Shown here: one piece after another, positions 2,755-60,610 of the stretch
Layout: each line of letters starts with the position of its first letter
Numbering within the stretch: the first letter of the stretch is position 1
Virus record (IMG/VR): IMGVR_UViG_3300024259_002152
Span: 286,867-350,866 of that record
DNA: 64,000 nt
Direction: 5' to 3' (one strand)
Source of the DNA: a virus
The notes under the pieces: model-generated
The model's input: the letters and a program-made list of their open reading frames with translations, nothing else
The model's database searches: none
What the model was told of the DNA's origin: nothing
Program-made: the position numbers and the translations under genes

Positions 2755-5535
2755 ATGAGAATAGCTGATATATACCAGACTGTAGCTGATAATATAAATA
2801 GCGCTCAGGATAGAGGTGGGGATATAGTGTCTTATGTTGATCAGATGATGACAGACATTAATGATTCTGAGATACCTACTAATGACACAAACAAGAAAAC
2901 ACTAGAAAGTCAAATTAATGCGACTTCCCACCTTCTCATTTTAAAGAATAATACCTATACTGTTGAAGTGCTAAATTTTGTCCGAGAGTTACAAAAATAT
3001 GTAACGGAAGAGTATGGTTCAATAAATACTTTTTTAAGAGATCATGGCATACTAGTGGGAGTTACTTTTGCTGATATATCTAAAACTGTAGGATATCCAA
3101 TCGATGCAGATAATATCGTTGTAGATTATGGGTGCGATTTTTATGTGTCTAATAGTGGTAATGATTCAAATGATGGACGCACTGCGGCAACCGCATGGGC
3201 TACTCTTGATAAAGTTAGTAGCGTTCTTACTGATGCTACATTGAGTGTGGATAATGCAATTAGTGCTGGTGATATTGTTGGTTTTCGTACAGATGATATT
3301 TTTGTTGGAACATTAGATACTTCTGAAGTTGACGGTAGTTCTGGAAATCCTATTACTTTTACTTCATATGGGACGGGAAATAAACCAGTAATTACTGGTA
3401 AGATTACTTTAGGAGATAATTGGGTTCATCATTCTGGTAATATTTGGAGATATGATGTTTCATCTTTGTCTGCCACTCATGTTAGATATTTATTGTTGGA
3501 TGGTGTCGATCAAACAATGTCTCAATCAGAAGTGGGATATGCAGACAATGCGACATATAGTTCTTTCCAAGACTATAATTTAAGCTTTAATCCAAGCTTT
3601 AATCCTAGTGTAGATCCCGATTATAATCCTAGCGATTATGACAGTATTTATGTGGGTGCTGAAGTATTGATGAGAACAACAATTTTTACATGGGATATAC
3701 GAACTGTTACAGATTATGATCCTTATTCGGGGACAATATGTTTTGCACCAACTGTAAGTTATATTCTGGGAACAACAGGATCTTCTAAGGGGGGTTATTT
3801 CTTTCAGAATTCTTTATATATTTTGGAACAAAATGAGATTCAGGGGGAATGGGTAAATGAAGGTGATTATATTTATTATTATTCAATAACTGATCCTTAT
3901 GATTTAGGAACCATTGAAGTAAGTTCAGTAGATACTTTAATGGAAATTGAAAATTCAGAATATATAACTGTTAATAATCTAAAGTTTATGTATGCTAATG
4001 ATTATGCCATATTAGGGGATGGAGCCAATTATAAAAATATAAATAATTGTCATTTTGAGCAATGTAACACTGGTATTTTTGAGGCAATCACAGGTTCATC
4101 AAATTCAATAATAGATAATAATATTTTTACAGATATGGGTAGCATTGCTATTCATCAACGTGATTCAGTTGATGTGACAATTACAAATAATACTATTACT
4201 AATATCGGTTTGACAATTGGCAGGATGGCTTATGTAGAAGATTCTAATACTTGGAATCCTAATATGTGGTATTCGGGTATACATTGTATAGATGCGTCAG
4301 GAGGATTGATTAAATATAATAATATTACAAATGTTGGTTATATAGGATTTAATTTCACCAGACCTACCGATCAAGTGCTTATACAATATAACTATATGAA
4401 AAATCCTTGTTTTTTACTCGTCGATGGTGGATCATTTTATTCTTATAGTAATGCTCAACCTACTGTAACTTCAAATATTAATCAAATAACCTATAGAAAT
4501 AATATTGCCGAGTATGATGATTATGATAATGTAGATCGTTTGATTGGACTTGAAGGTTCTACTTATGAGGAAAGTTCTGCCGGAGTTGTTGGTCTATTTA
4601 AAGATGGATATCTAAGAGCTGCTAATTATTATGATAATTTTGCATTTGGTTTTTTCTTTGCTATTAGAAGCAATGCTTCGATGTATTCTGTGTGGTCAGG
4701 AAATATTGGAGTAGATAAATATTACATTTCTGGAACTGCTAGATCTTTTTATATGGCTGATGCGGCTTCAGTATTTTGGGTTAATAATATTTGTGAAAAT
4801 AATGTTTTTGTTTCTAATTATGTAGGTAGTTCTAGAGTGGGTTTGGTATATGATGATCAATTAATTGCTGCTAGTGGCAATTCATTTGATTATAATAAGA
4901 TGTTAAATCCATTTACTATACTTCCAGAACGTATTTCTACTTTGCCAAGCTTCAACTATTTAACAATAGAAGAATGGAAAGCATATGATGCAGTAGGACC
5001 TCATGAAACTTCTAATGTATTTTTGTATTCTATATCTGGACTATCTTCTGAGTCCGAATTTATCTGGTATGCTACTAATCCTACAAAATCAACAGTTAGT
5101 GTCAGTTTCCCTGCTGGCTATCGTTACTATACTGTTGATGGAGACGCAGTTACAAGTGATACCCTATCTTTATATGAAGGTAAGGTTTATTACAGGACTA
5201 TAGATGAAGGAATGCCTCAGGCTAGTAGTGTTACTATAAGTGAAAATATAAGCGCTAATCCTTCTAGCGGTGGAGTTTATGATGCTTCTTATGATTATAA
5301 CCATGCCGAAGGGAATACTGAATCAGGTTCTACTTATCAGTGGTATCGTTCAATAGATGGGACTGTTGAAGCGAGAGTAACAATTTCAGGTGCGAATAGC
5401 TTATCATATGACACAACTAGTATGGATATCGATCAATATGTCTTATTTGGTGTGACACCAAAATCTGCTGCTGGAGCGGGAAGTTTAGTTACCGGAGTGG
5501 AAAGATTTAGCAATACCATGTCTGTAGTTTGGTAA
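2755..5535 (+). CDS. tail fibre/tailspike with right-handed beta-helix (pectate-lyase-like) domain
   Basis: 926 aa; SGNDSNDGRTAATAW start of beta-helix, many NNIxxN/IGxxG repeats, Gly/Ser-rich termini. Confidence 0.6.
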   Translation: MRIADIYQTVADNINSAQDRGGDIVSYVDQMMTDINDSEIPTNDTNKKTLESQINATSHLLILKNNTYTVEVLNFVRELQKYVTEEYGSINTFLRDHGILVGVTFADISKTVGYPIDADNIVVDYGCDFYVSNSGNDSNDGRTAATAWATLDKVSSVLTDATLSVDNAISAGDIVGFRTDDIFVGTLDTSEVDGSSGNPITFTSYGTGNKPVITGKITLGDNWVHHSGNIWRYDVSSLSATHVRYLLLDGVDQTMSQSEVGYADNATYSSFQDYNLSFNPSFNPSVDPDYNPSDYDSIYVGAEVLMRTTIFTWDIRTVTDYDPYSGTICFAPTVSYILGTTGSSKGGYFFQNSLYILEQNEIQGEWVNEGDYIYYYSITDPYDLGTIEVSSVDTLMEIENSEYITVNNLKFMYANDYAILGDGANYKNINNCHFEQCNTGIFEAITGSSNSIIDNNIFTDMGSIAIHQRDSVDVTITNNTITNIGLTIGRMAYVEDSNTWNPNMWYSGIHCIDASGGLIKYNNITNVGYIGFNFTRPTDQVLIQYNYMKNPCFLLVDGGSFYSYSNAQPTVTSNINQITYRNNIAEYDDYDNVDRLIGLEGSTYEESSAGVVGLFKDGYLRAANYYDNFAFGFFFAIRSNASMYSVWSGNIGVDKYYISGTARSFYMADAASVFWVNNICENNVFVSNYVGSSRVGLVYDDQLIAASGNSFDYNKMLNPFTILPERISTLPSFNYLTIEEWKAYDAVGPHETSNVFLYSISGLSSESEFIWYATNPTKSTVSVSFPAGYRYYTVDGDAVTSDTLSLYEGKVYYRTIDEGMPQASSVTISENISANPSSGGVYDASYDYNHAEGNTESGSTYQWYRSIDGTVEARVTISGANSLSYDTTSMDIDQYVLFGVTPKSAAGAGSLVTGVERFSNTMSVVW

Positions 5536-15420: not shown

Positions 15421-15657
15421 ATGACATGGAAATCTATAAAAGGTGTAAAACCCCCTTCTTTGAAAAGAGTATGGATATCCTATTATATAGATGGGATTTT
15501 AACTAAACAATATCAAACTTATGCTAAAGCTGTAGGAAAAGATCCTCATGGAGATATTTTTTGGCATGATTTTATGACTGGCAAAGTTCTTGATAATAGT
15601 AGAATTACAGTGTCTCATTGGATGGCAATTCCTGATAATCCAATTCTTAATTTATGA
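15421..15657 (+). CDS. hypothetical protein
   Basis: 78-aa ORF. Confidence 0.4.
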   Translation: MTWKSIKGVKPPSLKRVWISYYIDGILTKQYQTYAKAVGKDPHGDIFWHDFMTGKVLDNSRITVSHWMAIPDNPILNL

Positions 15658-16988
15658 TGATTAGTAGTCGTAACTCACAATATTTTTTTGAAAGGTTTGG
15701 TATCATGGCGAAGAGTAGTAAATCACGTAGGAAAAAAGGCGGGTCTGCCCCTGTAACTCCTAGGCAGACAATTGTTCACGAAATCTCTCAAGCAACTAAT
15801 GAGACAATCGTTCCCGAAAAAATGAGAACCCCAAAAATCTCTCATTTTTTTATCGATGTCGTGAAGAAAGTTCAAAAAGGGGTGGCTTATTATTCGGGGG
15901 ATATGAGTTTGGCTGAGTTAGCAGCTTTGACTCATGTGGATAATTACGATGGGGAGTGTGCGGATGTGGCAGGTAAGGGTCAAAGAGCATTGTGCGAAAC
16001 GAGAGGTAAGCAATTTATGAATTTTATTGCTGACCGAGACAATCTATGTTTTATGGAGATCCTTCTTAATGAACGTGAAAAAGAGATAACATTCACGTCT
16101 CTAAAACAAATGGGAATTTCTGTTCCTCAATATGACAAATTGTCAGCTATGCATGGGGTTCTTGAGATTCCTATTTCTGTTAGATTGTATGTCTATGATG
16201 GGCAAACAAGACGGTTTGGTTATTTAAGTTTGCTTCATTTTGATCTAGACATGTTGGGAACAGATGCTTATAAGAGTTTTAAACATATGAGAGTTCCTTT
16301 CTGTTTATGTCAGGTATCTGCTGGTCAAGAAACAACTTTGTTTCTTCATCACAATAAGCAAACTTCAGTGCCTAATGATCATAAGGCAATGGTTTCTTGG
16401 CATGCAAATAAATCATCAAGTCAGGTAAAGACTGATAGTTATTCCGAGAAAACACGTTCCGTCATTGCTGGTATGACATTCATGATGGATAGAGATAGAA
16501 CTAATCCATGGTATGGAAGAATTGGTATGCCCGATCTTCCTAAGGAAGAAAATAAGCTACGCTTGGGAACACAGGGCAGCTTTAATACAGGACTGAAACG
16601 TTTTGTTGGATGGTTGAATAACCAATATTGGAGTCCTGAAACTTCTTACGAGGAAAAGAGTCAGGACTTGAAAGAAATATGCACCGTATTCTGGAGATCA
16701 GTGCAAAAAGTTTGCCCCAAGATATGGAGAACTCCTGAAGATTATATTCAGTTAAAATCTTTTGGAATTGCAACTTTAAGTTTGCTGATGCATACTCTGT
16801 ATATCGATTTTTTCGATAGAGATATCGAATGGACTATTGATAACATTCATAAGCATTTGAAGAAGAGTAAAATTATTACAACTCCTAAAATGTGGGAATG
16901 TGGCGGAGAACTCTCCAAAAGGGGAGGTAATTACAAATCTCTTCAATCTCTTGAGCGGGATATATATGACCAGATCAGAAGGAATTAG
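15654..16988 (+). CDS. DGQHR-like (DndB/ParB-fold) domain protein, putative
   Basis: VYDGQTRRFGY resembles DGQHR/DGQQR motif of DndB-like proteins; 444 aa. Confidence 0.35.
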   Translation: MMISSRNSQYFFERFGIMAKSSKSRRKKGGSAPVTPRQTIVHEISQATNETIVPEKMRTPKISHFFIDVVKKVQKGVAYYSGDMSLAELAALTHVDNYDGECADVAGKGQRALCETRGKQFMNFIADRDNLCFMEILLNEREKEITFTSLKQMGISVPQYDKLSAMHGVLEIPISVRLYVYDGQTRRFGYLSLLHFDLDMLGTDAYKSFKHMRVPFCLCQVSAGQETTLFLHHNKQTSVPNDHKAMVSWHANKSSSQVKTDSYSEKTRSVIAGMTFMMDRDRTNPWYGRIGMPDLPKEENKLRLGTQGSFNTGLKRFVGWLNNQYWSPETSYEEKSQDLKEICTVFWRSVQKVCPKIWRTPEDYIQLKSFGIATLSLLMHTLYIDFFDRDIEWTIDNIHKHLKKSKIITTPKMWECGGELSKRGGNYKSLQSLERDIYDQIRRN

Positions 16989-19906: not shown

Positions 19907-20302
19907 ATGAGTAAAAGTGGTAAAATAACAATAGCTTCCTTTTTTTGTCTTACAGTGATTGCAATACTATATGGAATCGGTAGTTTCGTTCCGTCAGAGG
20001 CTGAAGCCGCAAGAAAAGACGCACCCACATGGATACTTCGAAGATCAGGTAAGATTATGGATATAGACCCTCTTTTTGGGGATTATAGTAATATTTTGGG
20101 TATTATGATCCATTTTGATAAGGAAAATTGGATTTGCGTATACGATGCAATATGGGATATCAAGCATCGAGGACCTTGGCCAAATATCGGAGAAGAAGGT
20201 TCTTTGTATACGGAAAAAGAGAGAAAGGAACGTCCTTGGAAATTGAGGTGGAAGTGGGTAGAAGGAACAGCCCCTAAAAGAATACATCTAGATGAAAACT
20301 AA
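19907..20302 (+). CDS. membrane-anchored protein, paralogue A
   Basis: MSKSGKITI... N-terminus and 5' leader duplicated at 20345. Confidence 0.45.
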   Translation: MSKSGKITIASFFCLTVIAILYGIGSFVPSEAEAARKDAPTWILRRSGKIMDIDPLFGDYSNILGIMIHFDKENWICVYDAIWDIKHRGPWPNIGEEGSLYTEKERKERPWKLRWKWVEGTAPKRIHLDEN

Positions 20303-20363: not shown

Positions 20364-20969
20364 ATGAGTAAAAGTGGTAAAATAACAATTGGATTTCTTT
20401 TCAGCTTTATGCTAATTGCAGTTGTATTAGGTGGTATTGTTGCCTCCAATGCTAAAGCTGCAAAAGATGGAGAATGGGAATTATGGACTTCAGCAAAAAT
20501 TATAGATGTAGATCCTCTTTATTCTATAGGAGGTTTTGGCATGATGGCTCATTTTGACAACATGGCATGGGCGGTAATATGGCGACAGGATATTGTAGGG
20601 AAATGGCCAGCTATAGGACAAACAGGGTCTCTTTATAAGAAAGGAAGCGAAGATAAAACAAAATGGAAATGGGTAAGAAAAAAACTCTCGAAAAAAATCA
20701 AAGCCAAAGTTAAACGCAAAACAAAGCATGATCCAAATAATGTAATTTCATTACCTCCCCAAATAATATTACCAGAAAATACAGAATGGGAGAGAGCCTC
20801 TACTACTCCTGAAATAGATAAAATCGTAGTAGTAAGATTCGATGATGGTAGAACTTCTACGGCTTATATTAATAATGATAAAGAGTGGAAGTTAGACATA
20901 GAAAGAAATAAATATCGCGGAGGCAAAACTATTAATAATGTCAAAGAATGGAAAGATATAGGTATCTAA
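20364..20969 (+). CDS. membrane-anchored protein, paralogue B
   Basis: shares MSKSGKITI N-terminus and upstream AAAGGTA(A/G)AAATAGCG leader with 19907 gene. Confidence 0.45.
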   Translation: MSKSGKITIGFLFSFMLIAVVLGGIVASNAKAAKDGEWELWTSAKIIDVDPLYSIGGFGMMAHFDNMAWAVIWRQDIVGKWPAIGQTGSLYKKGSEDKTKWKWVRKKLSKKIKAKVKRKTKHDPNNVISLPPQIILPENTEWERASTTPEIDKIVVVRFDDGRTSTAYINNDKEWKLDIERNKYRGGKTINNVKEWKDIGI

Positions 20970-24189: not shown

Positions 24190-24453
24190 ATGGGTAGGTG
24201 GATAGATACATTAAAAAAATTGCCAGAATCAAAGTCATTTTGGGCATTATATATGGTGGGCTTTGGAATCTGTCTTTCTTTGGCTTTAATCTCTGATATT
24301 ATCCCCGAGGAAAGTAGAGATGAATGGGGACGTACCTCTTGCGCTTATCCTATATTTCAGGTGGCTTTAGTATTAATTGCGAGTGTTCATTTTCTCGCGG
24401 CAGTGGTATTTTTGGTAGCATTTATAGTGGATAAAATAGAAAATATACCCTAA
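24190..24453 (+). CDS. hypothetical membrane protein
   Basis: two TM helices. Confidence 0.4.
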   Translation: MGRWIDTLKKLPESKSFWALYMVGFGICLSLALISDIIPEESRDEWGRTSCAYPIFQVALVLIASVHFLAAVVFLVAFIVDKIENIP

Positions 24454-24725
24454 TGGAAGTAAAAGTAAAATTAATTGTTCCTGATGGTTTGCATATGAGG
24501 CCATCTATGATGGTTGCTGATTTGGCTAATACTTTTGAGAGCCAGATTGAAATAAGCAAAAATGGAATAAAAGTAGATGGTAAAAGCATTATGGATTTAA
24601 CTATGCTCGCAGCAGTGGTGAACGAAGAATTAACAATCACTGCTAAAGGAAAAGATGAGCAAGAAGCTATAATAGCTCTTGAAAAATTAATTAGTAGTGA
24701 TTTTGATAACTATTTAGAGAAATAA
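24453..24725 (+). CDS. ptsH-like: HPr-like phosphocarrier protein
   Basis: GLHMRPSMMV (HPr His15 loop GLHARPA), GKSIMDL (Ser46 region), 90 aa typical HPr length. Confidence 0.7.
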   Translation: MEVKVKLIVPDGLHMRPSMMVADLANTFESQIEISKNGIKVDGKSIMDLTMLAAVVNEELTITAKGKDEQEAIIALEKLISSDFDNYLEK

Positions 24726-24742
24726 GAATGGGAGAATAAATA

Positions 24743-25009
24743 ATGGGCGAAGGAACGAAAATAACTAAGGAAGAAATGTTAATAGAAGAGATACGGAATG
24801 TAGTAGCTAATTTTGAAAAAGACTCCGCAATAGCTAAAGGAATAGCCAGGGATAGGGCTGAGAGAGTTGCTGAACTTATAAGTTCTACCAGCGAAGAAGG
24901 GATAAAAAAAAGAGACTCAGCACACATGGACTTTCAACGTTGGAGAGAAAGGTCAGAAGTTTTTGCACAAGCGGCAAAAGAATTAAAAAAGATACTAATA
25001 CCACATTAA
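24743..25009 (+). CDS. hypothetical protein
   Basis: 88-aa ORF. Confidence 0.4.
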   Translation: MGEGTKITKEEMLIEEIRNVVANFEKDSAIAKGIARDRAERVAELISSTSEEGIKKRDSAHMDFQRWRERSEVFAQAAKELKKILIPH

Positions 25010-25024
25010 GTAAGGATATAAAAA

Positions 25025-25630
25025 ATGTATGAAAAATTTACCGATAGGGCAAAAAGGGTATTAGCACTAGCCAATCAAACTGCACAAGGATGGAACCACG
25101 AGTATATTGGGACTGAACATATTCTTATGGGTTTAATTAAGGAAGGAAGTGGTATAGGATGCAATGTCCTAAAACAGTTTAATATTAATCTAGATCATGC
25201 CAGAAAAAAGATTGAAGAAATTGTTCAGACAGGTCCCGACATAGTTAGTATGGGCAAACTGCCGATGACTCCGAGAGGAGAGAAGATCATTCGTCTAGCA
25301 ATAGATTGTGCTAAAAAAATGAATTGCAATTATGTTGGAACAGAACATTTAATGCACGGGTTGCTTGAAGAAAAAGACGGTGTGGCATCCCATGTTTTGA
25401 TGGATTTATCACTCACTTTGGAAAAATATGAGAAAAATCTAGAATTTACACTAGGACCCAACACCAGGGAAAACGGATGTAAAAATTGTGTTAGTTATGA
25501 AGTATGTGTGATAGTTAAACATATAAATAAAACTCCATTGCTTGTTATCTCATCAAATCTTAATGATGTTCGAAAAGAAATGGAGAAGGTAGTCGCGAGT
25601 TCCTGCAAATGTTATAAGGAAAAAGAATGA
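25025..25630 (+). CDS. Clp N-terminal (ClpC/ClpA N-domain) double-repeat protein, stand-alone
   Basis: two repeats FTDRAKRVLALA...YIGTEHILMGL and MTPRGEKIIRLA...YVGTEHLMHGL; Cys-rich tail. Confidence 0.7.
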   Translation: MYEKFTDRAKRVLALANQTAQGWNHEYIGTEHILMGLIKEGSGIGCNVLKQFNINLDHARKKIEEIVQTGPDIVSMGKLPMTPRGEKIIRLAIDCAKKMNCNYVGTEHLMHGLLEEKDGVASHVLMDLSLTLEKYEKNLEFTLGPNTRENGCKNCVSYEVCVIVKHINKTPLLVISSNLNDVRKEMEKVVASSCKCYKEKE

Positions 25631-25806: not shown

Positions 25807-25883
25807 GAAATTTATACTTAACTCTAAAACAAAAGTCTGAAACTCCTATGTTCTTTCAAAAGTGAAAGGCATGCCAACATGAT

Positions 25884-25923
25884 ACATAACTCCTTGCTTA
25901 TAAAGGAGTTATGTATTTTTTTT
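25884..25923 (+). terminator. rho-independent terminator
   Basis: ACATAACTCCTT-loop-AAGGAGTTATGT-T8. Confidence 0.65.
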
Positions 25924-27239: not shown

Positions 27240-27471
27240 AAACTGTTTAGATTGTAGTTGTCATGAAATTATTGATGATCGAGATCCTCATGACTCGTTT
27301 TGTAGTGATGATATAGCAGTAGTATGCACAATAACCCAAAATCCTAACTGCAAACCAAAATCTAAATATCTAGCAAGTAGAAGTAAATTTCATATAGTAG
27401 CTTGTGCTTGTAGACCTTATAATGCGAAAAAAGAAGCAACAGTGCCCGATTGGTGCCCAAAAAACAAATAA
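27187..27471 (+). CDS. Cys-rich hypothetical protein
   Basis: 94-aa ORF. Confidence 0.35.
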   Translation: MRYMRKPLMTTKKKKKIKNCLDCSCHEIIDDRDPHDSFCSDDIAVVCTITQNPNCKPKSKYLASRSKFHIVACACRPYNAKKEATVPDWCPKNK

Positions 27472-27481
27472 GGAATTGTCC

Positions 27482-28417
27482 ATGGCAAATGTAGTAATGA
27501 TTGTAGGATATCCCGCAGCAGGAAAATCAGCGATAGCACAAGGATATATAGACCATGGATATACCATTCTAAATAGAGATACAGAGGGAGGAACTATCTC
27601 TGCCCTTGTGCCTAAGATGGTAAAACTTATTAGACAATATACAGACGTTGTCCTAGATAATACTTTCCCTACCAAACAAGTTAGAAAACAATTCATAGAA
27701 GCATGTAAAGATAATAATACTCCTATCTATTGTAATTGGGTTAATTCTTCTATAGAAGAAGCTCAGTTTAATGCCTGTCAAAGAATGATAAAGACAAGGG
27801 GCAAACTTCTCTCTTCAGAAGAGATTAAAAAAGAAAAAAGTCCTAATATGTTCCCTCCTATGGTCCAATTCAAATACCGTAAAGAGTTTGAAGAACCATC
27901 AGAAAAGGAGGGTTTTGGTATGGTGACTATAACAGAATTTGAAAGAAGATTTCCCCCTAATTGGAAGAATAAAGCCCTATTCCTTGACTATGATGGAACA
28001 CTTAGAACTACAAAAAGCGATAAGAAATGGCCTACCAAACCCAATGACATTCAAATACTTCCTAATCGAAGAGCCGTCCTTGATTACTATAAATCTCAAG
28101 GATATATTCTGTTGGGAGTTAGTAATCAATCGGGAATAAGAAAAGATAATCCAACCGAAGAACAAGCAATAGTTTGCTTCGATAAAACTAATACTATGCT
28201 TGGACATAAGATAGATTATAAGTATTGCCCCCATAGACCAGCTCCCATTAGCTGCTATTGTAGAAAACCTATGCCAGGAATGGCAATAGAATTTTTCCAT
28301 AAATATAAACTAGATCCTACTCAGTGCATTATGGTGGGAGATATGACCTCTGATGAAACGTTTGCTAAGAGATCCCATATGCAGTTTGTTCATGCTGATG
28401 AATTTTTTAAGTCATAG
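27482..28417 (+). CDS. pnk: polynucleotide 5'-kinase/3'-phosphatase (T4 Pnk-like)
   Basis: Walker A GYPAAGKS (kinase) + HAD phosphatase LDYDGTL, GVSNQSG, MVGDMTSDE; ATG 27482 behind AAGGA. Confidence 0.75.
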   Translation: MANVVMIVGYPAAGKSAIAQGYIDHGYTILNRDTEGGTISALVPKMVKLIRQYTDVVLDNTFPTKQVRKQFIEACKDNNTPIYCNWVNSSIEEAQFNACQRMIKTRGKLLSSEEIKKEKSPNMFPPMVQFKYRKEFEEPSEKEGFGMVTITEFERRFPPNWKNKALFLDYDGTLRTTKSDKKWPTKPNDIQILPNRRAVLDYYKSQGYILLGVSNQSGIRKDNPTEEQAIVCFDKTNTMLGHKIDYKYCPHRPAPISCYCRKPMPGMAIEFFHKYKLDPTQCIMVGDMTSDETFAKRSHMQFVHADEFFKS

Positions 28418-46948: not shown

Positions 46949-47455
46949 ATGCATAGAAGACTTCCAATAGGAAAACTAATAGGAGGATCTATTTATGTTC
47001 ATAGGGACTATGTAGATCGTGTAGTTCCTGGGGATATTTTCCGAGAAGCGAAGAAAATTGGACATATTAAAGATTTTCATGAATGGTATCCTCAATGGAC
47101 AATAGTCAAATGGAACAAATATAAAGAGATGGTCTCATTTGTTTATTGTCCTTATTTTGATAGACAATTTGAGCCAGGGATTCATCATGTAGTTACTGTT
47201 GATTTAAGGACTAGGACTAGTCAAATAAGGTGTTATAGGGGTATTAAGAATCGTCCTATTTATCATTATAAATGGCTTATGGTTGGTGTTGGTTATAGGA
47301 AATTTCAAGTAAGTCAATGTATGATGAGGAGTTATGAGATTGAAAGAGTTCTAAAGAAATACAATATTAATAGATCAAAAATTGGTTATAGGAGATATTG
47401 GGATGATGTAGTTATTCCTTTAATTCAGAAAGAGAGGATTCCAGATGGTAGATAA
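46949..47455 (+). CDS. hypothetical protein
   Basis: 168-aa ORF. Confidence 0.4.
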   Translation: MHRRLPIGKLIGGSIYVHRDYVDRVVPGDIFREAKKIGHIKDFHEWYPQWTIVKWNKYKEMVSFVYCPYFDRQFEPGIHHVVTVDLRTRTSQIRCYRGIKNRPIYHYKWLMVGVGYRKFQVSQCMMRSYEIERVLKKYNINRSKIGYRRYWDDVVIPLIQKERIPDGR

Positions 47456-47690
47456 AGAATCAAAGATGATAAATACTATGTTAGTATATAGTATTAAGTG
47501 TTTTAAGTGTGGAATTCTTGAGGAAGAGATGGTAAAAGCAGGTCCAATAAAGTTTTGTAAGAAATGTTTTGGGGAAGAGTTTAAGGATTGTGTATCTCCG
47601 AAAGGACAGATATATTCTGGCTCTAAGGTATATAAAGAATGGATAGGTAAATATAGAATGCATATGAATGCATTAACTCATGATAGATAA
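47445..47690 (+). CDS. zinc-ribbon protein
   Basis: CFKCG...CKKCF. Confidence 0.35.
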   Translation: MVDKESKMINTMLVYSIKCFKCGILEEEMVKAGPIKFCKKCFGEEFKDCVSPKGQIYSGSKVYKEWIGKYRMHMNALTHDR

Positions 47691-47717
47691 ATGTAAACCT
47701 TTTGTTGTAGGAGAATT

Positions 47718-47897
47718 ATGATGGCTATGGATCATTATGGTAACACGGTAGATGTAGGTGACACTGTAAGAAAGGTCGGTTACAGTGATGAGTATACTGT
47801 AATTGATACAGAGTATGGAGGAGAAATGCTCAGTTTGAGTGGGGAGAATTGGGTAGAAAATAATGTTCGTGTTCAGGATGTGATGAAAATAGGTTAA
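47718..47897 (+). CDS. hypothetical small protein
   Basis: 59-aa ORF behind GGAG. Confidence 0.3.
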   Translation: MMAMDHYGNTVDVGDTVRKVGYSDEYTVIDTEYGGEMLSLSGENWVENNVRVQDVMKIG

Positions 47898-47912
47898 TTT
47901 AAGCGGGTGTAA

Positions 47913-47983
47913 TCTCCATAAGTGTATTGGTCGCACGTGACCCTTCCAAGGTTGAAGGCTCAGTTCGATTCTGAGATGGAGAA
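47913..47983 (+). tRNA. tRNA-Gly(TCC)
   Basis: loop CTTCCAA. Confidence 0.65.
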
Positions 47984-48074
47984 TTTATTTTGGCTATATG
48001 CAAAAATAAATAAAGGTATATAGCATGTTTCTCCGAATATATTAATAGTTAATGATATATTTTGGAGAAATAAA

Positions 48075-48659
48075 ATGAGAAAAAGAACAAGTCCAATATG
48101 GACAATATCTAAAGATAAGCTAGAAAGGATTGTTAAAAATAGTGATAGTCTCGCTAAAGTCTTAAAACAAATTAATTTAGATCCATATGGTAGCGGTAGC
48201 CGTTATCGATCTTTGAAAGAAAGATTAAAAATAGATAGTATTGATTACTCTCATATACGGTTGGGATCTTTCTCTAATAGTGGTAGAAATTTTGATAGTA
48301 AGGCAATTTCTTTAAAAGAAATTATGGTGGAAAATTCTACTTATAGTAGAAATCATCTTAAGCGAAGACTACTAGAAAATAATATATTAGAAAATTGTTG
48401 TGCCATATGTGGTCAAGAACCCACTTGGAAAAATATAAAATTAGTAATGGTGTTAGATCATATTAATGGTGTTAGAAATGATAACAGATTAGAGAATTTG
48501 AGATTATTATGTCCTAATTGCAATAGTCAACAGAAAACTTTTGCAGGAAAATGTAATAAGAGACCTCTTCCTGTATGCAAAAATTGCGGTAAAGAGGTAT
48601 CTAGAAGATCAAAAACTAAATTATGTAAAAATTGTTATGTAAATAGGAGAATAACATGA
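48075..48659 (+). CDS. HNH homing endonuclease
   Basis: LDHINGVRNDNRLENLRLLCPNCN. Confidence 0.7.
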   Translation: MRKRTSPIWTISKDKLERIVKNSDSLAKVLKQINLDPYGSGSRYRSLKERLKIDSIDYSHIRLGSFSNSGRNFDSKAISLKEIMVENSTYSRNHLKRRLLENNILENCCAICGQEPTWKNIKLVMVLDHINGVRNDNRLENLRLLCPNCNSQQKTFAGKCNKRPLPVCKNCGKEVSRRSKTKLCKNCYVNRRIT

Positions 48660-48862
48660 TAATTACTCTTGATGAAAATACGATGATAAATACTAATTTC
48701 ATACAATATGTGGATAAAAAAGATGATCAAACAGTTGTTATAACAATGGCAGATAGTAAGAGATATGAAAAAAAAGAAACAATGGAACAGGTTAAAAAAT
48801 GGTTATTACATTATGAACAACATCCCCCTGTTACTCATAATATAAAGATAGTTGATAAATAA
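48656..48862 (+). CDS. hypothetical protein
   Basis: 68-aa ORF. Confidence 0.35.
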   Translation: MIITLDENTMINTNFIQYVDKKDDQTVVITMADSKRYEKKETMEQVKKWLLHYEQHPPVTHNIKIVDK

Positions 48863-48870
48863 GATTTTTT

Positions 48871-48942
48871 GCAGCTATGGTATAACGGATATTACGTGAC
48901 CTTGCCAAGGTCAAAATGTGAGTTCGATTCTCACTAGTTGCT
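48871..48942 (+). tRNA. tRNA-Gly(GCC)
   Basis: loop TTGCCAA. Confidence 0.7.
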
Positions 48943-48947
48943 TACAA

Positions 48948-49021
48948 GCCCAGGTAGCCCAAATGGCAGAGGCACATGCCTTAGGAGCATGGTGATGGTG
49001 GTTCGAATCCACTTCTGGGTA
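48948..49021 (+). tRNA. tRNA-Leu(TAG), type-I-like (short variable arm)
   Basis: loop CTTAGGA; 11-nt D loop. Confidence 0.5.
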
Positions 49022-49067
49022 TTTATTAGTGTTTTAGAAATAAGTAGCACCGAATCGGAGTAATATT

Positions 49068-49304
49068 ATGGATGTTGTAATGCTTTTACTTAGTACTCTT
49101 TCTATTATAATTGGTATATATTGTATAATAGTGAGTTTTGTTCCAATTTTAGGTATTGCTTGGGGTTTTGTACCATCTATTATTGGAATAGTATTAGGAG
49201 CTATTGCTGGTAGTACAGCAGGAGTAGTTCTCAATATAATAGCTATTGTTATTATGATTGTTTGGAATCTTATTTGTATTTTGTTTTTAGCTAAGAATGG
49301 TTAA
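49068..49304 (+). CDS. small membrane protein
   Basis: three TM helices. Confidence 0.4.
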   Translation: MDVVMLLLSTLSIIIGIYCIIVSFVPILGIAWGFVPSIIGIVLGAIAGSTAGVVLNIIAIVIMIVWNLICILFLAKNG

Positions 49305-49318
49305 AAAAACTGTTTTTT

Positions 49319-49393
49319 ACTCCTGTAGCTCAATTGGATTAGAGCATCTCCCTTCTAAGGAGAAAGTTAGGGGTTCGAGTCCTCTCAGGAGTG
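49319..49393 (+). tRNA. tRNA-Arg(TCT)
   Basis: loop CTTCTAA. Confidence 0.7.
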
Positions 49394-49603
49394 TTTTTCT
49401 CTATTTTTCACTTTTCCCGAAAAATATAAATCTTTATTACAAAGGAAGTTATAGAGAATTTTTAATATTTATAACAGGAAAATAGTGAATTTACTTGATT
49501 ATTCTTTCACTTTTGACTATATTATACATAGTCATATGACAAGTGTAGTAGTTAGTAAATGTTAACCTAAGTAGTATGTGGCAGAGCCACGGAGGTAACA
49601 ACA

Positions 49604-50026
49604 ATGCAAAGTGTTCAAGTAGGTAAGGAAGCCTCACGAACTGGTAGTGAGTCTTATATCCAGACCTACCAGAACCTGTTGAGGCAAAAAGAGCGTATTG
49701 ACAGGAATCTGATGAAGCTTCAGAGCAAATTATTAAGGGCTATGGCTGGTCAAAAGCCAGTCAGTAGTCCTGCGAAATATGTTTCGAGGCTTCCCAACAC
49801 GACCATTTTGGTCAGAGCTATTAGAGAGTGTATGACTCCGAATAAAGAGATGACTATGAGTGACATTCTAGAATCTCTTCATAAAAAGGATTTGTATCAC
49901 ACTCAGAGCCAGTATTTCTATACGATGGTTAATAATAAACTTAACCGTGATAGTCTTATTCATAAGGTTCGTCGCGGTGTCTTTATGTTTAAACCTCGCA
50001 GAAAAAAAGGAAGTGCTGTGGCATAA
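49604..50026 (+). CDS. hypothetical basic protein
   Basis: 140-aa ORF; followed by terminator. Confidence 0.45.
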   Translation: MQSVQVGKEASRTGSESYIQTYQNLLRQKERIDRNLMKLQSKLLRAMAGQKPVSSPAKYVSRLPNTTILVRAIRECMTPNKEMTMSDILESLHKKDLYHTQSQYFYTMVNNKLNRDSLIHKVRRGVFMFKPRRKKGSAVA

Positions 50027-50051
50027 AAATCTAAAAACATTTAAGTTTTTA

Positions 50052-50094
50052 ATGCCCAGTCTTCTTAGGAAACAGGATGATTGGGCATTTTTTT
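50052..50094 (+). terminator. rho-independent terminator
   Basis: ATGCCCAGTC-17 nt-GATTGGGCAT-T7. Confidence 0.6.
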
Positions 50095-50126
50095 ATACTT
50101 TTTTCCTAAAATTGGGAAAAAAAGAC

Positions 50127-50154
50127 TTGCAAAAGTAGGGAAAGTGTGTAGAAT
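50127..50154 (+). promoter_or_regulatory. sigma70-type promoter TTGCAA-N16-TAGAAT
   Basis: hexamers. Confidence 0.5.
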
Positions 50155-50165
50155 ACTGGGGTCAT

Positions 50166-50483
50166 GTGAGAGGCATGTATATTTTACACCTATGGATAAT
50201 GGAGATTATTGTGGAGCAAAGCGAAAGGACCAAGAACACCTACAGATTAAGATGTGAGAAGATAGTCAACGAATCATGGTCAAAAGTTGAGGAGCATGTA
50301 AATGAGATTATGAAAGCATTAGAGAAAGATATTCTTGATGAGAGAGATATTTTACTTTTAAGGCTTGCTTCTGGGGCTTTTGTTCAGAGAGTTCAGTTAA
50401 ATCAGTTAGAAAGTGATGAGCTTTTTCAGATAGATCCTAACGAGGGTCGTCGAGATAAAGATCTTGATCTTGATGTTTGTTAA
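50166..50483 (+). CDS. hypothetical protein
   Basis: 105-aa ORF behind TTGCAA-N16-TAGAAT promoter. Confidence 0.45.
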   Translation: MRGMYILHLWIMEIIVEQSERTKNTYRLRCEKIVNESWSKVEEHVNEIMKALEKDILDERDILLLRLASGAFVQRVQLNQLESDELFQIDPNEGRRDKDLDLDVC

Positions 50484-50557
50484 GCTCCTGTAGTCTAATA
50501 GGATAGGCACTGGTTTCCTAAACCAGATATATGCAGGTTCGAGTCCTGTCAGGAGTA
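50484..50557 (+). tRNA. tRNA-Arg(CCT)
   Basis: loop TTCCTAA. Confidence 0.65.
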
Positions 50558-50560
50558 TAA

Positions 50561-50635
50561 GTCCCTATCGCCTAATTGGATATGGCACTCCGCTACGGAC
50601 GGAGAATAGTGTGGGTTCGAATCCTACTAGGGATA
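50561..50635 (+). tRNA. tRNA-Arg(ACG)
   Basis: loop CTACGGA. Confidence 0.7.
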
Positions 50636-50640
50636 TTGCT

Positions 50641-50712
50641 AGGTCGTTGGTGAAATTGGTATCATTGGACTCTCCAAAAGTTCGGTTCAGGGTTCGAGTC
50701 CCTGGCGACCTG
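50641..50712 (+). tRNA. tRNA-Trp(CCA)
   Basis: loop CTCCAAA. Confidence 0.7.
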
Positions 50713-50718
50713 TTAAAA

Positions 50719-50765
50719 TTCCAGACAATGAGTTTGTAGAAATGGTAGTAGTATAGCACCGAATC
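50719..50765 (+). promoter_or_regulatory. promoter box + TATAGCACCGAAT
   Basis: motif. Confidence 0.5.
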
Positions 50766-50786
50766 CTTTTTTAGCGGAAAAAATAA

Positions 50787-50981
50787 ATGACAATTACAGA
50801 GCTGTATAAAAAATTAGGAAATATGGTAAAACATGGCTTAGGAGATGAGTCAGTAAAGATATCTATTCCTTTTAGAGATGGAATAGGTATTCATTATGAA
50901 GATATTGTGAATGTTACTACTCATGATGGGATAGTAGATATACATACTACTGTGTCAGAATATGATGATGTGAAAAAATGA
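50787..50981 (+). CDS. hypothetical protein
   Basis: 64-aa ORF. Confidence 0.35.
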   Translation: MTITELYKKLGNMVKHGLGDESVKISIPFRDGIGIHYEDIVNVTTHDGIVDIHTTVSEYDDVKK

Positions 50982-50987
50982 ATAGAA

Positions 50988-51061
50988 GCCCACGTAGACC
51001 AATCGGCAGAGTCATAGCATTTAAAATGCTAGTAGTGGTGGTTCGAGTCCACTCGTGGGTA
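50988..51061 (+). tRNA. tRNA-Leu(TAA), type-I-like
   Basis: loop TTTAAAA, short variable arm. Confidence 0.55.
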
Positions 51062-51077
51062 TTAAAATACTAGATAG

Positions 51078-51150
51078 GCCCAGGTGACCCAATGGCAGAG
51101 GTGAACGTTTCAAAAGCGTTTTGTTGGTGGTTCGAGTCCACTTCTGGGTA
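51078..51150 (+). tRNA. tRNA-Leu(CAA), type-I-like
   Basis: loop TTCAAAA, short variable arm. Confidence 0.55.
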
Positions 51151-58403: not shown

Positions 58404-59735
58404 ATGTCAGCGATAACAGAACATAAGAAATGTATTTGTGTAGAATTTGGAGATACTAACAACAACAAGGTATGGCAATATACTTTGTATGATGATGACA
58501 CTGCCTTAACAGAGTGGGGGAGAGTTGGGAAAGGTCTACAAAGTAAGATAACAAGTCATTCTCAGGCTCTTAAAAAGTGGAGAGAAAAAACCAATTCCAA
58601 TAACAAACCCGACAAAATGTATACTGAAGTAAAAGCAGTTGATACGGGGGGTTCTGTTTCTGTCGGCTCTGTTAAAAATGCAGAATTGAAAGATGTTGCT
58701 AAGAAACAGATTAAATCTAAAAATCCTGTTATTGCACAACTTATTGATTTTCTTGTTCAAGTCAATGCCCATCAGATTTTGAAACAATCGGGTGGCAAGA
58801 TCATGTATGATGCAAACTCCGCACAATTCAAAACACCACTCGGAGTTATTGACCCAGTGCAAGTAGCAGAAGCTAGAGATTTGCTTGTTATGATTTCTGA
58901 TTTTGTAAAGGCTGAGGACTTTGATAATAAAGAATTTGGTAGGATTCTTAATTCCTATCTTAGACTTATTCCTCATGATGTAGGAATGTCTAAGATTTCT
59001 ACTGGACGAATATTTCCTAATACTCAAACAGTTATTGCAGAGAATGATTTGCTTGATGGTTTGGAAACTTCCTTTATTGATATTACGACAAAGCCGACAA
59101 AGAAGAAAACCAAAAAGAAAGATGCTCCACAAATTTTTAATGTTGAAATGGAGATTGTAAGTGATAAGCAAATCTTGTCTCATGTCAAGCACCTTTATCA
59201 ATCGACAAGAAAGAGTATGCACCAATCTAACAATCTTTCTGTTCAAACAGTTTATGCTGTAACGATCAAGAACATGAAAGATGGATATGATAAGCATGGT
59301 GCTAAGATGAGTAACATTTGGCAGTTGTGGCACGGAACAAAGGCAAGTAATCTTTTGTCTATTATGAGGCAAGGTTTGATTATTCCTTCTTCCAGTTCTG
59401 GTCATGTGACAGGTCGAATGTATTCCGATGGGGTGTATTTTTCTGACATTAGTACTAAAGCACTGAATTATGCTACGAACTACTGGGGAGGTGGAGGCAA
59501 TACTGATAAAACGTTTATGTTTTTGGCGGACGTAGCGATGGGTAATTACCATATCGCCAAAAGTAGTTGGACTAAATATCCTATTCCTGGTTCGGATAGT
59601 ACATGGGCGAAAGGCAGAGATAAAGGGGGAGTTAATTCTGGAGTGGTCAACGATGAAATGATAGTATATCGTCTTGATCAGTGTAATCTTGTTTATTTGG
59701 TAGAATTTGTGCCAAATTCTCAGCTTAGAACATAA
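58404..59735 (+). CDS. PARP-like ADP-ribosyltransferase with N-terminal WGR domain
   Basis: WGR: WQYTLYDDDTALTEWGRVGKG; catalytic QLWHGTKASN...GRMYSDGVYFSD...DEMIVYRLDQCNLVYL matches the PARP1 H-Y-E core motifs. Confidence 0.8.
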   Translation: MSAITEHKKCICVEFGDTNNNKVWQYTLYDDDTALTEWGRVGKGLQSKITSHSQALKKWREKTNSNNKPDKMYTEVKAVDTGGSVSVGSVKNAELKDVAKKQIKSKNPVIAQLIDFLVQVNAHQILKQSGGKIMYDANSAQFKTPLGVIDPVQVAEARDLLVMISDFVKAEDFDNKEFGRILNSYLRLIPHDVGMSKISTGRIFPNTQTVIAENDLLDGLETSFIDITTKPTKKKTKKKDAPQIFNVEMEIVSDKQILSHVKHLYQSTRKSMHQSNNLSVQTVYAVTIKNMKDGYDKHGAKMSNIWQLWHGTKASNLLSIMRQGLIIPSSSSGHVTGRMYSDGVYFSDISTKALNYATNYWGGGGNTDKTFMFLADVAMGNYHIAKSSWTKYPIPGSDSTWAKGRDKGGVNSGVVNDEMIVYRLDQCNLVYLVEFVPNSQLRT

Positions 59736-59803: not shown

Positions 59804-60610
59804 ATGAGTAAATATCCTTTATTAGATAACAAAGAATGGCTTTATAGTAAGTATATTCAAGAATATCTTGGTTTTAGAGCGATATGTAAATTAGTAGGAG
59901 CACAAAGCACTAATTCTGTTAGACAATCATTAATAAAGCACTCTATTCCAATTAGAACTATTGGAGATGGTATCAGAATTAATAGAGTAGATGATGGTTT
60001 TATTATTAACAAAGAAGTTATAGAAGGTTGTTTATTAGGAGATGGTTTCTTATGTAAGTGGAATAAAAAAAATGATAATTCTTTTCCTTATTTCGCGAAA
60101 AGAAATAAATATTATGATCATATAATATATGTTTCTAGAATTCTTTTTGGTAATAAGTGGAAGGAAAGGACAAAAGAGAATGATGAAAAAAGTTTAGGAA
60201 AAAGACATGTAGTATTTACTTTAAGAAGTTTGTCAAATAAGCTTTTACAATCATTTTATAAAAGGTGGTATCCTGAGTGGAATAATTATAAAAAAGTAAT
60301 ACCTGATGATATTGATATAACACCAACATTACTACTACATTGGTTTTTAGATGATGGTAATTCTTACCAAAGAAGAAAAAATAGTAGCACCAAACAAATA
60401 GTTATAACTCTTTGTAGTGAATGCTTTAATAAAGATGATCAACAAATGATAGTGGAAAAAATAAACTACATTTTTGGTTTAGTTTGCACTTTGAAGAAGG
60501 TTAATTATGGCACTGGATATCAGATACGTATTCCTCAATCTCAAGCATCTTTGTTTTATGATATTATAGGTCCTTGCCCTGTTCCAAGTATGAAATATAA
60601 ATGGAAGTAA
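59804..60610 (+). CDS. LAGLIDADG homing endonuclease (two-motif)
   Basis: CLLGDGFL and HWFLDDGNS; very AT-rich. Confidence 0.65.
   Translation: MSKYPLLDNKEWLYSKYIQEYLGFRAICKLVGAQSTNSVRQSLIKHSIPIRTIGDGIRINRVDDGFIINKEVIEGCLLGDGFLCKWNKKNDNSFPYFAKRNKYYDHIIYVSRILFGNKWKERTKENDEKSLGKRHVVFTLRSLSNKLLQSFYKRWYPEWNNYKKVIPDDIDITPTLLLHWFLDDGNSYQRRKNSSTKQIVITLCSECFNKDDQQMIVEKINYIFGLVCTLKKVNYGTGYQIRIPQSQASLFYDIIGPCPVPSMKYKWK

Follow-up and report, generated by a model that had tools for sequence, protein, structure and literature searches.

We examined a 64,000-nucleotide stretch of viral DNA (positions 286,867 to 350,866 of IMG/VR record IMGVR_UViG_3300024259_002152), referred to here as the window, in which an open reading frame (ORF) at 24453-24725 encodes a homologue of HPr, the phosphocarrier protein of the phosphoenolpyruvate (PEP):sugar phosphotransferase system (PTS). 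The original prediction, made from the letters alone, had singled out this ORF as a phage HPr by the motifs GLHMRPSMMV and GKSIMDL, and both are present, as residues 12 to 21 and 43 to 49 of the product, respectively. The phage HPr has His14, Arg16, Pro17, and Ser45; His14, Arg16, and Ser45 correspond to canonical His15, Arg17, and Ser46. Canonical numbering, used for these three residues below, was taken from HMMER alignments in which query residues 3 to 77 match Crh residues 4 to 78 and query residues 2 to 89 match residues 3 to 90 of T. tengcongensis HPr. The active-site loop G12-L13-H14-M15-R16-P17 fits the pattern G-[LIVM]-H-x-R-P and includes the equivalent of Arg17, and K44-S45-I46-M47 fits the pattern K-S-[IL]-[ML] expected around Ser46. 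Met15 follows the active-site His at a position where Ala, Thr, or Ser is usual; because of this Met, the strict PROSITE His-site pattern would not be expected to match the phage HPr. The same Met is found in the Planctomycetota HPrs and in all of the phage-type HPrs described below.

All sequence and fold criteria place the protein in the HPr family. It scores 81.7 bits against PF00381 (PTS-HPr; E = 4e-23, gathering score 23), with residues 2 to 81 lying on profile positions 2 to 80 of 81, and 76.4 bits against the NCBIfam model TIGR01003, for which the cutoff is 47.9. A phmmer search matched 33 solved HPr, Crh, and NPr chains at E <= 0.01, and the His15 and Ser46 positions align to those of solved chains. 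An AlphaFold2 model built on 16 homologues (mean predicted local distance difference test score, 90.5) has the order beta-alpha-beta-beta-alpha-beta-alpha of an open-faced beta-sandwich, with strands at residues 2-6, 31-36, 39-42, and 59-65 and helices at 16-25, 46-52, and 69-81. In this model His14 and Ser45 immediately precede helices 1 and 2, the second of which starts directly after Ser45. The top Foldseek matches of the model were HPr-family structures only (template modeling [TM] scores of 0.86 to 0.91 to solved HPrs), including T. tengcongensis HPr (3LE3; TM 0.90, root mean square deviation 1.0) and Escherichia coli HPr (TM 0.86 to 0.88). The finding named beforehand as evidence against an HPr, a lack of conservation of His15 or of the fold-defining residues, did not occur: His15 is kept, and the modeled fold matches at TM 0.90. 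Yet the phage HPr is an equivalog of no curated HPr or NPr subfamily, and its scores against models for the fused forms are also far too low. It misses the cutoffs of the Gram-positive HPr models PRK13782 (59.6 versus 123 bits) and PRK13780 (54 versus 110), as well as those of PRK10850 (46.1 versus 153) and PRK10897 (NPr; 44.2 versus 119), and a PHROGs search returned no family for it.

The gene resembles its surroundings in composition, with a GC content of 31.9% overall and 24.2% at third codon positions, compared with 35.4 +/- 1.8% and 25.1 +/- 3.7% for its neighbors. Eight independently assembled contigs with the HPr gene match the window at 100% identity from end to end. Because the composition matches that of the neighbors and the independent contigs agree, the gene does not appear to be an assembly artefact. 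An exact copy of the HPr protein is encoded by 13 contigs, two of which measure 326,829 and 350,866 bp.

We searched IMG/VR for related huge-phage contigs. Scans with the single HPr protein or with an alignment of Planctomycetota-type HPrs returned almost nothing, and a scan with an alignment of HPrs from orphan contexts recovered such contigs. The closest, designated L102, is part of UViG_3300035698_029839, a viral contig of 297,710 bp with 31% GC; it is syntenic with the window from 14.9 to 37.8 kb, at 35 to 76% protein identity. Its HPr of 86 amino acids is located as in the window, flanked by the same genes upstream (143 and 82 amino acids) and downstream (97 amino acids, Clp_N, prepilin-like, and 270 amino acids), and is 67% identical to the window HPr. 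The maximum found for cellular HPrs was 59%, over 81% of the length, in a k-mer search and 53% in an exhaustive HMMER search of 1.84 billion representatives. Among 18 orthologue pairs shared by the window and L102 (median identity, 52%), HPr is the second most conserved. Since the eight contigs identical to the window gave no population-level variation, we used the divergence from L102 to estimate selection by the NG86 method, obtaining nonsynonymous (dN) and synonymous (dS) divergences of 0.19 and 0.92 and a dN/dS of about 0.2, a ratio that is approximate given that dS is near saturation.

Further relatives extend this lineage. A 48-kb IMG/VR contig (L103) is a third, more distant relative with partial synteny and an HPr 46% identical to that of the window. 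A profile of these three phage HPrs matched about 20 further proteins at 99 to 159 bits, above the plateau of Planctomycetota HPrs at about 90 to 97 bits. Those that could be placed lie on contigs of 82 kb (L118), 50 kb (L119), and 23.5 kb (L120), with GC contents of 36 to 38%, and on a 22.9-kb contig from the window's own Joint Genome Institute sample. All of these HPr genes are embedded in long runs of small codirectional ORFs, nearly all without a Pfam match, and none has PTS neighbors. The best matches of the unbiased search (P0024, P0071, P0020, and P0064) lie in similar small-ORF arrays on contigs of 27 to 32% GC, and the HPrs of two further contigs, L096 and L099, are also in phage-like arrays. 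We assembled a phage-type set of 26 sequences from the window HPr, the 20 top profile matches, the L103 HPr, and four orphan-context HPrs; the set was picked mostly by profile score, phage-like context was checked for about 10 members, and one member, P0187, resembles a cellular HPr of the Planctomycetota type. In this set, His15, Ser46, and the Met after the His are present in 26 of 26 sequences, and Arg17 is present in 24, with Lys in the other 2. Most likely, the HPr gene is a lineage gene whose source, long ago, was a host-type regulatory PTS, and purifying selection has retained it since.

Some members of the wider group have unusual arrangements. L099 (28% GC, phage-like) carries tandem HPr genes at 1847-2107 and 2124-2402; the first copy reads GLNMRH, with Asn in place of His15 and Ser46 kept, as in a Crh-like protein, and the second has His15. 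In L096, the gene two places upstream of HPr (115-750) encodes 211 amino acids that resemble the RelA/SpoT-type HD domain (PF13328; 26.6 bits, cutoff 27.2); this product might act as a small alarmone hydrolase, in keeping with a stringent-response theme, although we treat this sub-cutoff match as a lead rather than as evidence. The top match of the exhaustive search, L100 214-918, encodes 234 amino acids, with an N-terminal extension of about 95 residues without a family match followed by a complete HPr domain (89.5 bits), and it adjoins a gene for DUF6166, a family that recurs in L118 and L120. In a tblastn search of INPHARED, most matches came from unannotated faecal "Bacteriophage sp." fragments, induced-prophage records, and Salmonella whole-genome shotgun records and were discounted as unreliable; only gp197 of phage G was accepted.

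The window very probably belongs to the genome of an uncultured huge phage of about 330 to 350 kb. Of its 43 ORFs of at least 150 amino acids, 42 are on the plus strand, and the lone minus-strand ORF overlaps a gene for a poly(ADP-ribose) polymerase (PARP). The GC content is 31 to 41% locally and 35% overall, and 31 tRNA genes are found at 41039-51150. Family matches elsewhere in the window include three DNA methyltransferase-like ORFs, a helicase, a RecA/DnaB-like ATPase, and an SPFH protein; there are strong matches to PHROGs of unknown function, and searches with two of the proteins matched 151 and 42 deposited phage genomes. A megablast search of the window from 20 to 32 kb against INPHARED phages gave no match. 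Neither the window nor the flanks fetched from related contigs yielded a capsid, portal, or terminase gene, and the viral assignment therefore rests on gene content and relatives. This lack would be expected if the DNA came from the genome of a cell, from a plasmid or some other extrachromosomal element, or from host DNA misassembled into a viral contig, a source that we regard as very improbable in view of the eight identical independent assemblies, the composition that HPr shares with its neighbors, the synteny with related IMG/VR contigs, and the tRNA array with its HNH gene, the Rnl1- and PNKP-type repair genes, the homing endonucleases, and the many proteins in common with cultured phages; no cellular housekeeping genes were seen. 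Viral genes on both sides, retention in related viral contigs, and native composition identify HPr as a virus-borne gene of host type. The claim that the HPr is phage encoded is thus borne out by codirectional ORFs, tRNAs, phage-typical genes, and a syntenic IMG/VR contig, and the lineage-wide synteny of HPr, together with its linkage to a ClpC-type N-domain gene, adds to what had been predicted.

We next consider the cellular relatives of the phage HPr. The nearest ones located in genomes, P0002 (59% identical) and P0009 (47%), lie in clusters of Ribosomal_S30AE (hpf), PTS_EIIA_2 (ptsN), and HPr genes, which may be followed by the gene for Enzyme I (EI). Species-representative genomes yielded 585 relatives, and the best 80 are nearly all from Planctomycetota (Phycisphaerae, Sedimentisphaerales, Pirellulales, and Anaerohalosphaeraceae). 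Of the best 80 of the 585 loci, all have ptsN immediately upstream of HPr, 77 have hpf upstream, and 58 have EI as the next gene downstream; the hpf-ptsN-HPr-EI arrangement was confirmed by Pfam on one complete chromosome. The organism-named matches of the profile search are likewise Planctomycetota, and pairwise distances agree. The HPrs of these hpf-ptsN-ptsH-ptsI operons, whose regulatory PTS belongs to group R / R-Ntr (Comas et al. 2008, PMC2405797), are the top-scoring cellular relatives, at 47 to 59% identity, and share with the phage HPr the unusual G-L-H-M-R-P loop, the V-D-G-K-S-I-M motif, and M-L-A-A. The phage HPr differs from them in lacking the N-terminal extension found in many cellular members and in 10 of the 36 positions at which the cellular clade is at least 90% conserved, and no hpf, ptsN, or ptsI neighbors were found around it. 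Its differences are not evenly placed: on the putative docking surface (residues 11 to 26 and 42 to 55), 23 of 30 positions are identical to the Planctomycetota consensus, compared with 23 of 56 elsewhere (Fisher p = 0.003). E. coli and Bacillus subtilis HPrs match that consensus at 12 to 14 of the same 30 surface positions. The PTS of Planctomycetes has been described as a regulatory "group R" system, a group whose members, some Proteobacteria excepted, have no PTS transporters (PMC2405797). A study of Planctomycetes-rich consortia reported phages of about 300 kb, with no link to HPr (PMC9040852).

Based on these observations, we give about even odds to the view that the window encodes a phospho-competent huge-phage HPr that would act as a working carrier plugged into host EI/EIIA-Ntr signaling and that is kept by purifying selection. 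A working carrier appears the most likely role because the conserved His15, Arg17, and Ser46 argue against an inert binder. Its target would more likely be host nutrient-status signaling than sugar uptake, because the closest cellular relatives serve a purely regulatory Planctomycetota phosphorelay. Rewiring of host carbon regulation or of sugar uptake had been proposed for the gene; a takeover of signaling is a reasonable version of that idea, whereas sugar uptake does not fit the transporter-less regulatory PTS of the relatives. In the mechanism we envision, host EI would phosphorylate His14 (His15) of the phage HPr from PEP during infection, and the phage HPr would exchange phosphate with a host EIIA-Ntr-type protein through the same helix-1/helix-2 surface that host HPr uses. 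The phosphorylation state of the host EI-HPr-EIIA(Ntr) relay, which in the candidate hosts would be encoded in an operon with the ribosome hibernation factor gene hpf, could thereby be shifted or uncoupled from the real nutrient status. The phage would presumably gain from an infected cell that is held in a "fed, translating" regulatory state; sugar import would not be the expected target. The analysis shows the family, the fold and its catalytic residues, the phage context, the orthology and constraint among phages, and the kind of cellular HPr that is nearest; that the protein is phosphorylated, who its partners are, which phylum the host belongs to, and in which direction physiology would shift are points that we infer.

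Several results weigh against this interpretation. The scan of species-representative genomes was seeded with two clade-specific peptides and was therefore biased toward the Planctomycetota-type clade, and the top matches of the exhaustive search were mixed, at no more than 53% identity. In neighbor-joining trees, the Planctomycetota clade was the immediate sister of the window HPr in only 7 of 200 bootstrap replicates. In view of this result, we do not claim that the phage HPr nests within Planctomycetota. HPr is known to have low phylogenetic content, with 59% resolved quartets (PMC2405797), and the unstable placement is consistent with this property. The contigs with phage-type HPrs have GC contents of 27 to 38%, compared with 40 to 70% (median, 49%) for the Planctomycetota loci; a complement of 31 tRNAs can presumably accompany such a gap between phage and host. 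No phage EI, EIIA, or HprK was found in the window or in two pattern-limited scans of related IMG/VR contigs. The IMG/VR scan for EI, a weak negative obtained with two peptide patterns, gave only 26 to 29% matches on unrelated contigs, several of them from giant viruses; these matches are possibly other PEP-utilizing enzymes. Since no partner was found in the window or the related contigs, the phage HPr must depend on partners supplied by the host. Finally, the direction of its effect, more flux through the relay or a sink for phosphate, is not readable from sequence.

The last point leads to a different account, in which the phage HPr would bind host EI, take phosphate without productive transfer, or both, as a phosphate sink or dominant-negative decoy that leaves host EIIA-Ntr and HPr dephosphorylated. 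Conservation of the docking surface and of His15, with no partner gene in the window, would suit such a protein equally, and four substitutions (A18S, F21V, V22A, and Q48D in the protein's own numbering, one less than canonical) fall in or near helices 1 and 2 at positions at least 90% conserved in Planctomycetota, where they could alter partner selectivity. A pure binder, however, would not need to keep Arg17 and Ser46 across the 26 phage-type sequences, and gp197 of phage G illustrates that phage HPr-like proteins can lose these sites, which the clade of the window HPr has not. Although sequence alone does not distinguish a sink from a carrier, we consider the sink rather unlikely. A decoy for HprK or EI had been part of the original prediction; a decoy role as such is reasonable, and the HprK part finds no support in that no HprK motif was seen near the cellular loci or in the window.

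The same prediction had set the protein in a low-GC Gram-positive host, where HprK would phosphorylate Ser46 and so impose CcpA-like catabolite repression, or where the phage HPr would serve as a decoy for HprK. The conserved Ser46 in its K-S-I-M context, the AT-rich window, and the presence of Crh and Firmicute HPrs among the best PDB sequence matches can all be cited for this idea. However, Firmicute HPr and Crh are 30 to 40% identical to the phage HPr, compared with 47 to 59% for Planctomycetota-type HPrs; the Gram-positive equivalog models are missed by the wide margins given above; and the neighboring Clp_N gene points to Planctomycetota. E. coli HPr and NPr keep Ser46 although E. coli has no HprK, and because Ser46 is also kept in such organisms, its conservation alone is not evidence of HprK control. 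A regular-expression search for P-loops of the HprK type returned nothing from the window or from up to 6 kb around the 80 cellular loci, which is a crude negative. Rhodopirellula baltica, with two EIs and one HPr (R/Ntr), has no HPrK row in Table S2 of the comparative study (PMC2405797). With its nearest relatives in Planctomycetota, control of the phage HPr by HprK and CcpA seems to us highly improbable, and we set the Gram-positive framing aside.

The gene for a stand-alone ClpC-type N-domain protein lies close downstream of HPr (Table 1). The N-terminal 145 or so residues of the phage Clp_N protein are 55 to 64% identical to ClpC-type N-domains, and all 11 organism-named matches are from Planctomycetota. 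Stand-alone Clp_N proteins of deposited phages (Myrna gp251 and metagenomic phages of 595 to 735 kb) are only 28 to 44% identical. The order HPr then Clp_N is found in five phage contigs (the window, L102, L118, L119, and L120), at 40 to 67% protein identity. None of the 80 cellular HPr loci has a ClpC N-domain at a distance of up to 6 kb, and the linkage is thus a feature of the phages rather than a captured host fragment. The N-domain of ClpC is a docking module for phospho-arginine and adaptors. The stand-alone phage protein may be a second mimic of a host regulator, a candidate decoy of the ClpC domain on which adaptors and substrates dock.

This linkage bears on a further possibility, that the phage HPr is a phospho-state-dependent regulator of a non-PTS or phage target, such as the Clp_N protein or the host ClpC machinery. 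With or without its phosphate, it would bind this target or phosphorylate it, in the way that HPr of E. coli binds glycogen phosphorylase or Rsd. The adjacency of the two genes in five phage contigs and none of the 80 cellular loci would agree with it, as would the docking role of the ClpC N-domain and the presence, among the structural neighbors, of solved HPr structures bound to glycogen phosphorylase, Rsd, and FruR. On the other hand, the adjacency may be mere synteny inherited among related phages, and L103 and L096 have HPr without a nearby Clp_N gene. We regard such a regulator as improbable, somewhat more so than the phosphate sink. We therefore rank a working carrier first, a phosphate sink or decoy second, and a phospho-dependent regulator of another target third, with the HprK/CcpA scheme unlikely.

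More speculatively, the contigs may represent a widespread clade of Planctomycetota-infecting huge phages with a two-gene host-mimic module, in which HPr would hijack the transporter-less relay and the ClpC N-domain would intercept adaptor and substrate recognition, together holding the cell in a growth-permissive state. Such phages would provide the first case of a virus taking over a regulatory PTS; we hold this view only tentatively, as a minority possibility. What is new here is a clade of virus-borne orphan HPrs that are putatively phospho-competent and are linked to a ClpC-N-domain gene. Auxiliary genes of phages are mostly enzymes, and in this case a small signaling phosphocarrier is kept under purifying selection with both phospho-sites invariant. 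Its retention suggests that viruses manipulate the PTS-type nutrient-status relay itself. The transporter-less PTS of Planctomycetota and related phyla is essentially unstudied, and a viral copy could serve as a natural probe of, for example, hpf-mediated ribosome hibernation and stress responses. A group of 300-kb-class phages also gains a host candidate, Planctomycetota, that can be tested, and the linked ClpC-N-domain protein becomes a second candidate mimic to consider.

We compared the phage HPr with named systems. Bacillus phage G, a cultured jumbo phage of 497 kb, encodes an HPr-fold homologue, gp197 ("PtsH-like"; JN638751 135707-135961, L014 3974-4228), which is 36% identical to the window HPr (34% in the full alignment) and is likewise an orphan gene among small phage ORFs. 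It has Thr and Glu at His15 and Arg17 and Asn at Ser46 (GLTSET and AKNMME), sites that the clade of the window HPr keeps, and having lost them gp197 should not be phosphorylatable at the canonical positions. The best functional analogy for the cellular relatives is the PTS-Ntr of E. coli, a non-transport relay of EI-HPr-EIIA(Ntr) type in which the gene for NPr (PtsO) lies beside hpf and ptsN (PMC2405797); NPr itself is only about 26% identical to the phage HPr and, at TM 0.67, is the weakest match among HPr-like structures. HPr and Crh of B. subtilis, the CcpA co-repressors, have the same fold and the K-S-I-M context of Ser46, at 30 to 37% identity. Crh is the top PDB sequence match (E = 2e-12) and has Gln at His15, where the phage HPr has His. 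Literature searches found no published description of a phage-encoded HPr; matches to literature on YerA41 and Exiguobacterium were set aside, as they concern host genes only.

The genes around HPr appear to form a transcription unit (Table 1). The ATG of HPr overlaps the TAA stop of the upstream hydrophobic ORF (TAATG), and no Shine-Dalgarno motif precedes it; from this overlap, HPr is likely to be translationally coupled to that ORF. The ORF between HPr and Clp_N has a counterpart of 97 amino acids in L102 (35% identity) and ones of 95 amino acids in L118 and L119, which were matched by position only. The prepilin-like ORF, which overlaps the end of the Clp_N gene and carries the prepilin-type cleavage/methylation motif KKGFSLIELMVV, is kept in L102 (69 amino acids, 51% identity), and no other gene separates it from a terminator-like hairpin. 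This hairpin may close the unit holding HPr and Clp_N. Promoter-like sites were no commoner in the window than in shuffled sequence.

Table 1. Features of the HPr locus (coordinates refer to the window)
Feature	Coordinates	Strand	Remarks
ORF of 87 amino acids, hydrophobic, no family match	24190..24453	+	Upstream of HPr; absent from L102
HPr-family phosphocarrier homologue	24453..24725	+	90 amino acids, ATG to TAA
ORF of 88 amino acids, no family match	24743..25009	+	Between HPr and Clp_N
Stand-alone ClpC-type N-domain protein	25025..25630	+	Two Clp_N repeats, Cys-rich C-terminal tail, no AAA+ module; phrog_35667
Prepilin-like ORF of 59 amino acids	25627..25806	+	N-terminal motif GFSLIELMVV; faint PF07963 match
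Terminator-like hairpin	25881..25917	+	15-bp stem, 7-nucleotide loop, T-run; single consensus match, overall count not above shuffled controls

Other genes of the window deserve mention in their own right. A T4 Rnl1-like RNA ligase (39-626, phrog_562) and a polynucleotide kinase-phosphatase (PNKP; 27404-28417, AAA_33 plus PNK3P) together form the tRNA-repair pair with which phages classically counter host anticodon nucleases, and the PNKP is 63% identical in L103. Within the tRNA array, an HNH endonuclease gene is embedded at 48075-48659, an unassignable "tRNA-???" (42263-42338) abuts a tRNA-Val, and two tRNAs are long: a tRNA-Met of 91 nucleotides (44013-44103) and a tRNA-Ser of 97 nucleotides (42717-42813). 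An ADP-ribosylglycohydrolase (1193-1981; phrog_6572, 193 bits) is encoded in the same window as the PARP, which is eukaryote-like (58404-59735; catalytic domain, 87 bits; PARP regulatory domain, 33 bits) and is directly followed by a LAGLIDADG homing endonuclease gene (59804-60610). The only candidate structural gene seen in the window encodes a 926-amino-acid protein (2755-5535) that pairs a right-handed beta-helix/NosD-like region with an Ig-like domain at its C terminus and may be of the tail-fiber or depolymerase type. A DndB-like protein of 444 amino acids (15654-16988; PF14072, 35.8 bits) is 66.5% identical to its L102 counterpart and among the most conserved of the proteins in common. 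Two adjacent paralogues at 19907-20302 and 20364-20969 both begin MSKSGKITI and have signal-peptide-like N termini; because both match a single L102 ORF of 209 amino acids, they represent a local duplication.

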